Assembly (NCBI RefSeq): GCF_058153355.1
Contig: NZ_CM177019.1
Reading direction: 5' to 3' (one strand)
Length of the DNA stretch: 64,000 nucleotides
A program made the position numbers and the translations under genes. This document shows positions 54,358 through 54,741 of this stretch, piece by piece (within the stretch, counting starts at the first letter, position 1; each line of letters starts with the position of its first letter). A model generated the notes under the pieces. The model saw only the letters and a program-made list of their open reading frames with translations. It was not told where the DNA came from and did not search any database.

Positions 54358-54558
54358 TTAACAACAGCCTTCTTCTGTATGCAGCAAGGCAAAAAGTTCT
54401 GTAACTCCATTGTTATTAACTGCACTGGTTACTAACACGTTGTGCGCTCCAGCTTCCCGTAACCAACTTTTCACCAAAGATATTTGTTCCATGCTGGCTA
54501 AATCTGCTTTGGTTACTACTCCAATGACCGGGTGATTCATGGCCCGGTAGGGCGTTTT
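54358..54558 (-). pseudogene. EutP/PduV-like GTPase C-terminal fragment (yoeF-like)
   Basis: Only the C-terminal segment (...HPVIGVVTKADLASMEQISLVKSWLREAGAHNVLVTSAVNNNGVTELFALL) is present; N-terminal part replaced by IS66-derived sequence. Confidence 0.45.
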
Positions 54559-54597
54559 TACCTCTAATTCCTGCTTCAGCGCTGAGATTCCTGCTTG

Positions 54598-54741
54598 TTG
54601 CCGGAAAAGCAGGCACCTGCCGTCTGAACGGTATCGATCCGGAAGCGTATCTGCGCCATATTCTGAGCATACTGCCGGAATGGCCCTCCAACCGTGTTGA
54701 CGAACTCCTGCCATGGAACGTAGTTCTCACCAATAAATAAG
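54598..54741 (+). pseudogene. IS66-family transposase (TnpC) 3' fragment
   Basis: Translation ...AGTCRLNGIDPEAYLRHILSILPEWPSNRVDELLPWNVVLTNK* matches the conserved C-terminal tail of IS66 TnpC; no upstream transposase body present. Confidence 0.55.

Follow-up and report, generated by a model that had tools for sequence, protein, structure and literature searches.

A pdu-operon deletion scar beside tmaR in Escherichia coli and an ISSso6 copy in the terminal repeat of its IS66-family remnant

The junction beside tmaR (yeeX) in the 64,000-nucleotide stretch of DNA analysed here (contig NZ_CM177019.1 of assembly GCF_058153355.1; hereafter, the window) is an ordinary deletion scar left by the loss of the pdu operon, and it is already annotated in K-12. 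At this site the 3' end of the E. coli pduV gene, truncated in place, lies close to the right end of an IS66-family element, whose terminal inverted repeat is split by an intact copy of the insertion sequence ISSso6. The core finding, the junction between the pduV and IS66 remnants, is thus already known; what goes beyond existing annotation is only the targeting of IS66-family ends by ISSso6 and the inferred inversion of the adjoining island. We consider it very probable that the whole arrangement is a pdu-deletion scar that later received ISSso6 in its IS66 repeat under the guidance of an RNA and then took part in an island inversion. The preliminary description of this locus had instead recognized three unrelated mobile-element remnants, a count that the analysis does not support, given that pduV is a resident gene and ISSso6 is intact and placed by the IS66 remnant. 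The features and their coordinates are collected in Table 1.

Table 1. Window features, starting at tmaR and ending at the kinase gene that opens the island segment now beside it, with the basis of each assignment. A slash between sequences marks the two arms of a hairpin.
Feature	Position	Strand	Basis
tmaR (yeeX), DUF496, core gene used as flank anchor	53928..54257	+	PF04363 (E 2e-45); RefSeq name tmaR in all related loci
GC-rich hairpin CAATGAGGGTTGCC/GGCAACCCTCATTG between convergent tmaR and pduV remnant	54271..54299		Read from sequence
pduV 3' remnant, codons 88-147 and stop	54358..54540	-	PF10662; alignment with XH988 pduV
118-aa open reading frame, K-12 yoeF (b4538)	54358..54714	-	Open reading frame list; K-12 annotation and coordinate mapping
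71-bp filler between the pduV and IS66 breakpoints	54541..54611		Matches neither pdu operons nor intact IS66 elements
ISEc23-like IS66-family right-end remnant	54612..54767	+	PF13817; comparison with empty sites and intact ISEc23
yoeD pseudogene, part of the IS66 remnant (tnpC)	54612..54740	+	K-12 mapping
Intact ISSso6 (IS110 family, IS1111 group), 1518 bp	54768..56285	-	Boundaries by empty-site comparison
ISSso6 DEDD transposase, 375 aa, uninterrupted	55033..56160	-	PF01548, PF02371
Structured core of the ISSso6 downstream non-coding region; candidate seekRNA/bridge RNA	54831..55013	-	Folding energy
Candidate target guide 5'-CGUUAGCGCUUG-3'	54965..54976	-	Pairing with natural targets
IS66-repeat TAC terminus, then cobU-side flank leading to the PfkB (rikA) cluster	56288..56398	+	Comparison with L003 and L004
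DeoR-HTH/PfkB kinase gene	56399..57613	+	PF00294 (E 6e-64), PF08220

The 80-residue translation of 54358-54600 on the minus strand matched the PduV-EutP family (PF10662) with an E value of 2.3e-13 and 50.6 bits (cut-off 21), the Pfam curated cut-offs being the threshold for the identity of both fragments at the junction. The match covers profile positions 86-142 of 143, that is, the C-terminal end, in agreement with the C-terminal EutP-like GTPase fragment first described on this strand. A word-indexed protein search with the same 80 residues returned no full-length relative, only E. coli fragments of 44-139 residues and of many different lengths. In an exhaustive search of representatives, the closest full-length relative was a PduV of 150 residues (49% identity; P0086), encoded by pduV inside a complete, Salmonella-like pdu operon (L005). 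There, pduV is followed by pduW and pduX and then, in convergent orientation, by the DUF496 gene (tmaR), a FUSC gene (YeeA-like), a GyrI-like gene (SbmC-like) and dacD. The L005 segment from pduU through pduV, pduW and pduX to tmaR was compared with 5426 complete E. coli genomes, revealing strains that have pduU-pduV immediately next to tmaR, in contrast to L005, where pduW and pduX separate pduV from tmaR.

The locus of E. coli XH988 reads cobTSU, a riboswitch, pocR, pduF, pduA to pduU, and pduV (147 aa), with tmaR 100 bp further on. Compared to XH988, the window shows 94% nucleotide identity over 341 bp, running from the tmaR side through the spacer into pduV, and the homology in pduV ends exactly at 54540, at codon 88. 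The remnant faces tmaR in the same convergent orientation, at the same 100-bp spacing and with the same hairpin as in strains whose pdu operon is intact; the hairpin, which XH988 also keeps, is probably a two-way terminator. Because the XH988 alignment extends into the gene and stops at codon 88, the fragment is the resident pduV truncated in place, and the GTPase piece is therefore not mobile-element DNA.

The remnant shares with PduV of the pdu microcompartment operon the last 60 residues, 49 of them identical to E. coli PduV, and the position beside tmaR, whereas only the intact gene has the P-loop (GPSQCGKT), the DTPGE motif (both within residues 8-47 of intact PduV) and the rest of the operon. 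What survives is a piece of an EutP/PduV family member, which would not be capable of GTPase function because it has no P-loop. Relative to intact pduV, we counted 9 non-synonymous versus 2 synonymous codon differences, and the divergence was 6.6% in the remnant compared to 0.6% in the adjacent tmaR. Judged by these codon and divergence comparisons, the remnant is a decaying pseudogene without sign of selective constraint.

K-12 MG1655 and the window are 99.5% identical over the stretch from tmaR to 54767; this is the locus that in K-12 carries yoeF (357 bp) and yoeD (b4642), where the cryptic prophage CP4-44 has its right end. The comparison with IS66 elements and reference E. coli genomes proposed in the preliminary description leads to an ISEc23-like end and to this K-12 locus. 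The annotated end of CP4-44 (2078748 in K-12) maps to 54541, exactly at the pduV breakpoint. ISSso6 is absent from K-12, where the IS66 remnant leads on into the yeeW/cbtA side of CP4-44; the window instead has ISSso6 splitting the terminal repeat, with the PfkB cluster behind it. The yoeF frame is an accidental chimera composed of 58 codons from the filler and the antisense strand of the IS66 remnant, followed by 60 pduV codons, and its 118-residue length recurs as P0001, a cluster of 562 members. The NCBI pipeline calls instead a 60-residue EutP/PduV family microcompartment system protein that is not flagged as a pseudogene (RefSeq records of L001, L002 and L014), and it annotates the IS66 part as a partial "transposase domain-containing protein". 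The locus is annotated inconsistently, as the 118-residue YoeF in K-12 versus the 60-residue pipeline product, and both products are probably the dead tail of pduV.

We assessed the frequency of the junction with the 80 bp that span both breakpoints, at a threshold of at least 95% identity over the 80 bp. This segment occurs once per genome in 4177 of the 5426 complete E. coli genomes (77%); 644 genomes have the pduU-pduV region intact. Because all of these 4177 genomes carry it in single copy and in near-identical form, the junction is one old, stable event and not a repeatedly struck site. The two breakpoints are 71 bp apart, rather than the about 40 bp first estimated, and the filler between them gave no match in pdu operons or IS66 elements and no further copy in the complete E. 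coli genomes, being single copy per genome. About 200 complete genomes (e.g., NZ_CP129348.1) carry a longer pduV remnant that starts approximately 115 bp further upstream in the gene and adjoins a 'hypothetical protein', implying at least two independent pduV truncations in the species; at least three states of pduV exist within it. At the cobU end of the island (L003, 10369-10709; L009, 37437-37777), a fragment of a cobalamin-biosynthesis gene lies beside an IS4 fragment, and these may be the cob-side counterpart scar of the same cob/pdu loss.

Two other accounts of the pduV fragment fit these data poorly. YoeF could be a genuine gene that combines the C-terminal domain of PduV with a new N-terminus, as its frame is open in both the window and K-12 and its cluster is large and widely conserved. 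However, the first 58 codons are filler and IS66 antisense, the product has neither P-loop nor DTPGE, non-synonymous changes outnumber synonymous ones relative to intact pduV, and the NCBI pipeline calls a 60-residue product at a locus where predicted lengths range from 44 to 139 residues; we regard a functional YoeF as very unlikely. Harder still to credit is an origin of the fragment as cargo of a CP4-44-type island or from a eut operon. K-12 database descriptions do link yoeF to CP4-44, and the name EutP/PduV is ambiguous, but the annotated end of CP4-44 at the pduV breakpoint places the remnant outside the island, its spacing from tmaR, orientation, hairpin and nucleotide identity all match E. 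coli pduV, and the Salmonella-like pdu operon of L005 adjoins the same core genes (tmaR, yeeA, sbmC and dacD).

On the other side of the filler, the frame-3 translation of 54564-54741 on the plus strand matched the IS66 transposase C-terminal domain (PF13817, DDE_Tnp_IS66_C) with an E value of 1e-15 and 58 bits (cut-off 30), over positions 4-39 of 39. A formal search thus bears out the IS66-type C-terminus that had been proposed, with about 43 transposase codons instead of roughly 48, as homology to ISEc23-like elements starts at 54612 and the DNA upstream is unrelated to ISEc23. Beyond the tnpC stop (54741), the remnant continues through the right terminal inverted repeat and lacks only the final TAC, so that 156 bp of the element survive (159 with the TAC). 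In empty sites (E. coli C and others), the sequence reads ...GTTGACGCT/TAC (here and below, a slash marks the ISSso6 insertion point) and ends in ...GACGCTTAC before an unrelated flank. The intact ISEc23 of L007 shares this right end and has the matching GTAAGCG... as its left repeat, with a target duplication of 8 bp, GAGAAAAG, around it; because of these three features, ...CGCTTAC is the true IS66 terminus. Over the final 60 bp ahead of the ISSso6 insertion point, one base distinguishes the remnant from intact ISEc23. The remnant therefore shares with ISEc23 and the IS66 family the C-terminal domain of tnpC plus the right terminal repeat, but compared to a complete element it is a 3' remnant without tnpA, tnpB, the DDE core and the left end. 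A second IS66 3' remnant, 88% identical and inverted, is found at the cobU end of the island beside the PfkB (rikA) cluster.

The preliminary description had also placed an IS110 element immediately beyond the IS66 remnant and counted it as another remnant; the adjacency was right, as the element starts at 54768, inside the IS66 repeat, but the element is intact. Its open reading frame (55033-56208, minus strand) matched both IS110-family transposase domains (PF01548, E 2.6e-11; PF02371, E 8.2e-24). The transposase is 100% identical to that of ISSso6 on the Shigella sonnei plasmid pINV, and the whole element is nucleotide-identical to a plasmid copy in FDAARGOS_943. It is flanked by CT on both sides (54766-54767 and 56286-56287) and has 13-bp sub-terminal inverted repeats, ATGACTTTCCGTG, at 54771-54783 and 56268-56280, which lie 3 and 5 nt from the ends. 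Its non-coding DNA amounts to 265 nt after the transposase stop versus 125 nt before the start. Sub-terminal inverted repeats and a non-coding region downstream of the transposase gene are hallmarks of the IS1111 group (PMC11187229), and ISSso6 belongs to this group by its sub-terminal repeats and long downstream non-coding region; the N-terminus of the transposase also matches the ISSso6 sequence in the supplement of that paper. The ISSso6 copies of VL7S7 (L001) and FDAARGOS_944 (L004) each have a private 1-bp deletion (window positions 55213 and 55236) that shifts the transposase frame; the window copy carries neither and is intact. Joining the ends of ISSso6 as a circle (minus-strand TTGACA at 54782-54787, with 56279-56284) would place a perfect -35 hexamer, TTGACA, 17 nt upstream of CAGTAT, an arrangement that resembles the junction promoters reported for IS1111 and IS110 circles.

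To define the insertion specificity, we compared the window with eleven other sites: nine of ISSso6, one of a 97%-identical element (L012) and one of a relative with a 79% identical transposase. All eleven share ...GCT/TAC or ...ACT/TAC. The nine ISSso6 sites read ...GCT/IS/CTTAC, with the full ...CGCT in all except L013 (...CGCC), and the 97%-identical element lies in a poorly matching site, ...CACT/IS/CTTAC (ATTCACT/TAC). Seven of the nine, at six other loci, are in IS66-family ends or IS66-like terminal sequences; the remaining two are in unrelated DNA, where CCGTTAGCGCT/TAC and CCCAGCGCT/TAC mimic the motif. Two further strains carry ISSso6 in the yeeX-side remnant, and two carry it in the cobU-side remnant; the IS66-associated sites also include an intact ISEc23, an IS66 fragment on a plasmid, an IS66-type end elsewhere in a chromosome and a sequence on S. 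sonnei pINV. Every IS66-associated copy examined has an equivalent position and orientation. An ISSso6 end is present in 29 genomes, at least 15 of which have a copy in an IS66 end. At the junction in the window, the insertion point is 3 bp inside the IS66 terminus, within the terminal inverted repeat, and the position of ISSso6 there is explained by the IS66 repeat sequence, which dictates it.

Two of the compared genomes add details on ISSso6 itself. On S. sonnei pINV (L017; NZ_CP019696.1, approximately 2700-4420), an identical copy of ISSso6 occupies the target ...GGTTAACGCT/TAC, an IS66-like terminal sequence between virF and ospE2. On the yeeX side of FDAARGOS_943 (L009, 2546-2651), the first 106 bp of ISSso6 precede a complete ISSso6, which starts directly after an internal, target-motif-like ...AATCACGCT; this tandem looks like the result of self-insertion or of recombination within the ISSso6 non-coding region.

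The downstream non-coding region of ISSso6 is predicted to fold with a minimum free energy of -88 kcal/mol (z = -4.7), and none of 200 shuffled sequences folds as well; an 18-bp stem closes its structured core. In Rfam, the interval 54200-56450 had no match at E <= 1. A simple exact-match search of the non-coding region against the target returned 6-nt matches only, none of 7 nt or longer. A candidate guide was found once natural non-IS66 targets were collected and G.U pairs allowed: the segment CGUUAGCGCUUG pairs better than any other with several independent targets, pairs over 12 contiguous nucleotides with three natural targets (shuffle p <= 0.006), and pairs with the IS66 repeat of the window itself except for one A.C mismatch. 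Further 3', a conserved 5-nt GUAAG matches the other strand across the insertion point, and the order of guide and then GUAAG is that reported for IS1111-type seekRNAs (PMC11187229). There is also a 10-nt identity, ATATCAGCGT, between the non-coding region and the junction of the right end with the target.

Covariation of guide and target was seen in the relative with the 79% identical transposase, from Mycetohabitans. In this element the guide is GGGUGCUU and the target GGGTGCTT, with the rest of the RNA conserved; its site is ...CCGGGTGCT/TAC, of its four guide changes, three have a matching change in the target, and no IS66 transposase is recognizable in the flank. The guide region of the L012 element is nearly unchanged although its site matches poorly, so this element allows no test of redirection. 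Together, these observations, with covariation from one relative, support the idea that ISSso6 is placed by RNA-guided homing to its target and not by a general hotspot.

The two flanks of ISSso6 in the window are chimeric. On the left, the IS66 remnant carries all 17 variants of the yeeX type. On the right, the TAC and the following flank are identical to the sequence downstream of the cobU-side remnants in L003 and L004, and they differ from the yeeX-side TTTAATCC. The first gene of the island segment brought beside yeeX is the PfkB gene, which in other genomes is named a PfkB family carbohydrate kinase or, in a few records, rikA, and from 56286 to 64000 the window follows the normal internal order of the island, apart from a 1331-bp IS3-family insertion. 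This IS2-like element (59473-60803) splits a DMT-family transporter gene of the PfkB/rikA cluster, and in other strains the cluster contains IS1, IS2 or IS3 insertions at varied points.

FDAARGOS_943 has an intact, identical ISSso6 in both IS66 remnants, inverted and about 30 kb apart. This is the expected parent arrangement, and recombination between its two copies would give the join seen in the window. The join from the tmaR side to PfkB across ISSso6 was absent from the 5426 complete E. coli genomes, which fits a rare event and also a misassembly across a 1.5-kb repeat. No SNP locating a crossover was present inside ISSso6 in the comparison of the window with VL7S7, FDAARGOS_943 and FDAARGOS_944, and the inversion is read from this one junction, its reciprocal being beyond the window. 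The chimeric flanks thus imply an inversion of approximately 30 kb between two inverted ISSso6 copies, or else misassembly.

The second of these, an assembly chimera produced by the 1.5-kb repeat at both ends of the island, is a real though clearly less likely prospect: it would account for an arrangement found in none of the complete genomes, both flanks separately adjoin ISSso6 copies in FDAARGOS_943, and the window copy has no distinguishing SNPs. Against it, inverted identical 1.5-kb repeats are classic substrates of recombination, the 7.7 kb to the right of ISSso6 agree with the order of the island, and the window has no sign of an assembly break. A broader alternative, already raised in the preliminary description, is a general insertion and deletion hotspot beside yeeX in which three unrelated mobile fragments gathered independently. 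The island between yeeX and cobU does vary among strains, being CP4-44 in K-12, containing zinc-ribbon genes, ISL3 and IS2 in E. coli C, and carrying rikA, IS21, IS630 or IS1 elsewhere, and the several pduV states in the species point in the same direction. Yet the GTPase piece is a resident gene, the identical single-copy junction in most genomes reflects one event, and ISSso6 takes its position from the IS66 repeat, the same site being used in plasmids and at other chromosomal locations. We therefore find the hotspot improbable; it does not hold for the junction, a single old event, and applies only to the interior of the yeeX-cobU island, which is strain-variable.

Under the preferred reading of a deletion scar later used by ISSso6, the starting state would be a pdu operon ending in pduU-pduV and converging on tmaR/yeeX, as some E. 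coli still have. In the lineage leading to most E. coli, codons 1-87 of pduV and the upstream genes (pduU being the one demonstrated) would have been lost, after which the surviving 60 codons would have been abutted by the 71 bp and then by the last 156 bp of an ISEc23-like element, the IS66 remnant forming the end of a CP4-44-type island. Much later, an intact ISSso6 would have entered the IS66 terminal inverted repeat, 3 bp inside, with the guide in its non-coding RNA matching the repeat (...CGTTGACGCT/TAC) and directing the insertion. The diverged, inverted IS66 remnant on the cobU side would have offered the same target to a second copy of ISSso6, and recombination between the two copies may then have inverted the island of approximately 30 kb, bringing the PfkB (rikA) cluster beside yeeX. 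The order of these events, guidance by the RNA and homologous recombination as the route to the inversion are what we infer from the breakpoints, site comparisons and flanks described above.

ISSso6 shares with the IS1111 group the DEDD transposase, the sub-terminal repeats, the downstream non-coding region, a fixed insertion point and orientation, a candidate guide-like segment complementary to the target and the use of another mobile element as target. ISEc11, ISKpn4 and ISPa11 are group members guided by seekRNA/bridge RNA; the target of IS4321/IS5075 is the terminal repeats in transposons of the Tn21 family, and that of ISEc21 is transposase genes of the IS3 family (PMC11187229). ISSso6 differs from these examples in that its target is an IS66-family terminus and its RNA is a candidate predicted from the sequence. 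The literature searched contained no description of IS66-family termini as a target of ISSso6, which in the seekRNA paper appears only in phylogeny files (PMC11187229).

The scar itself is of small value, documenting at most where most E. coli lost the pdu operon. Beyond it, we incline, by a modest degree, to the view that ISSso6 and its relatives are RNA-guided insertion sequences that home to IS66-family termini, for which even a 156-bp fossil common to most E. coli would still be a landing pad, two inverted remnants making the island of about 30 kb invertible. ISSso6 would then illustrate, in nature, how a guide-RNA insertion sequence can take the terminal repeat of another element as its address, and such targeting would explain the nesting of these elements and the seeding of inversions in Shigella-like and enteroinvasive E. 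coli-like genomes.
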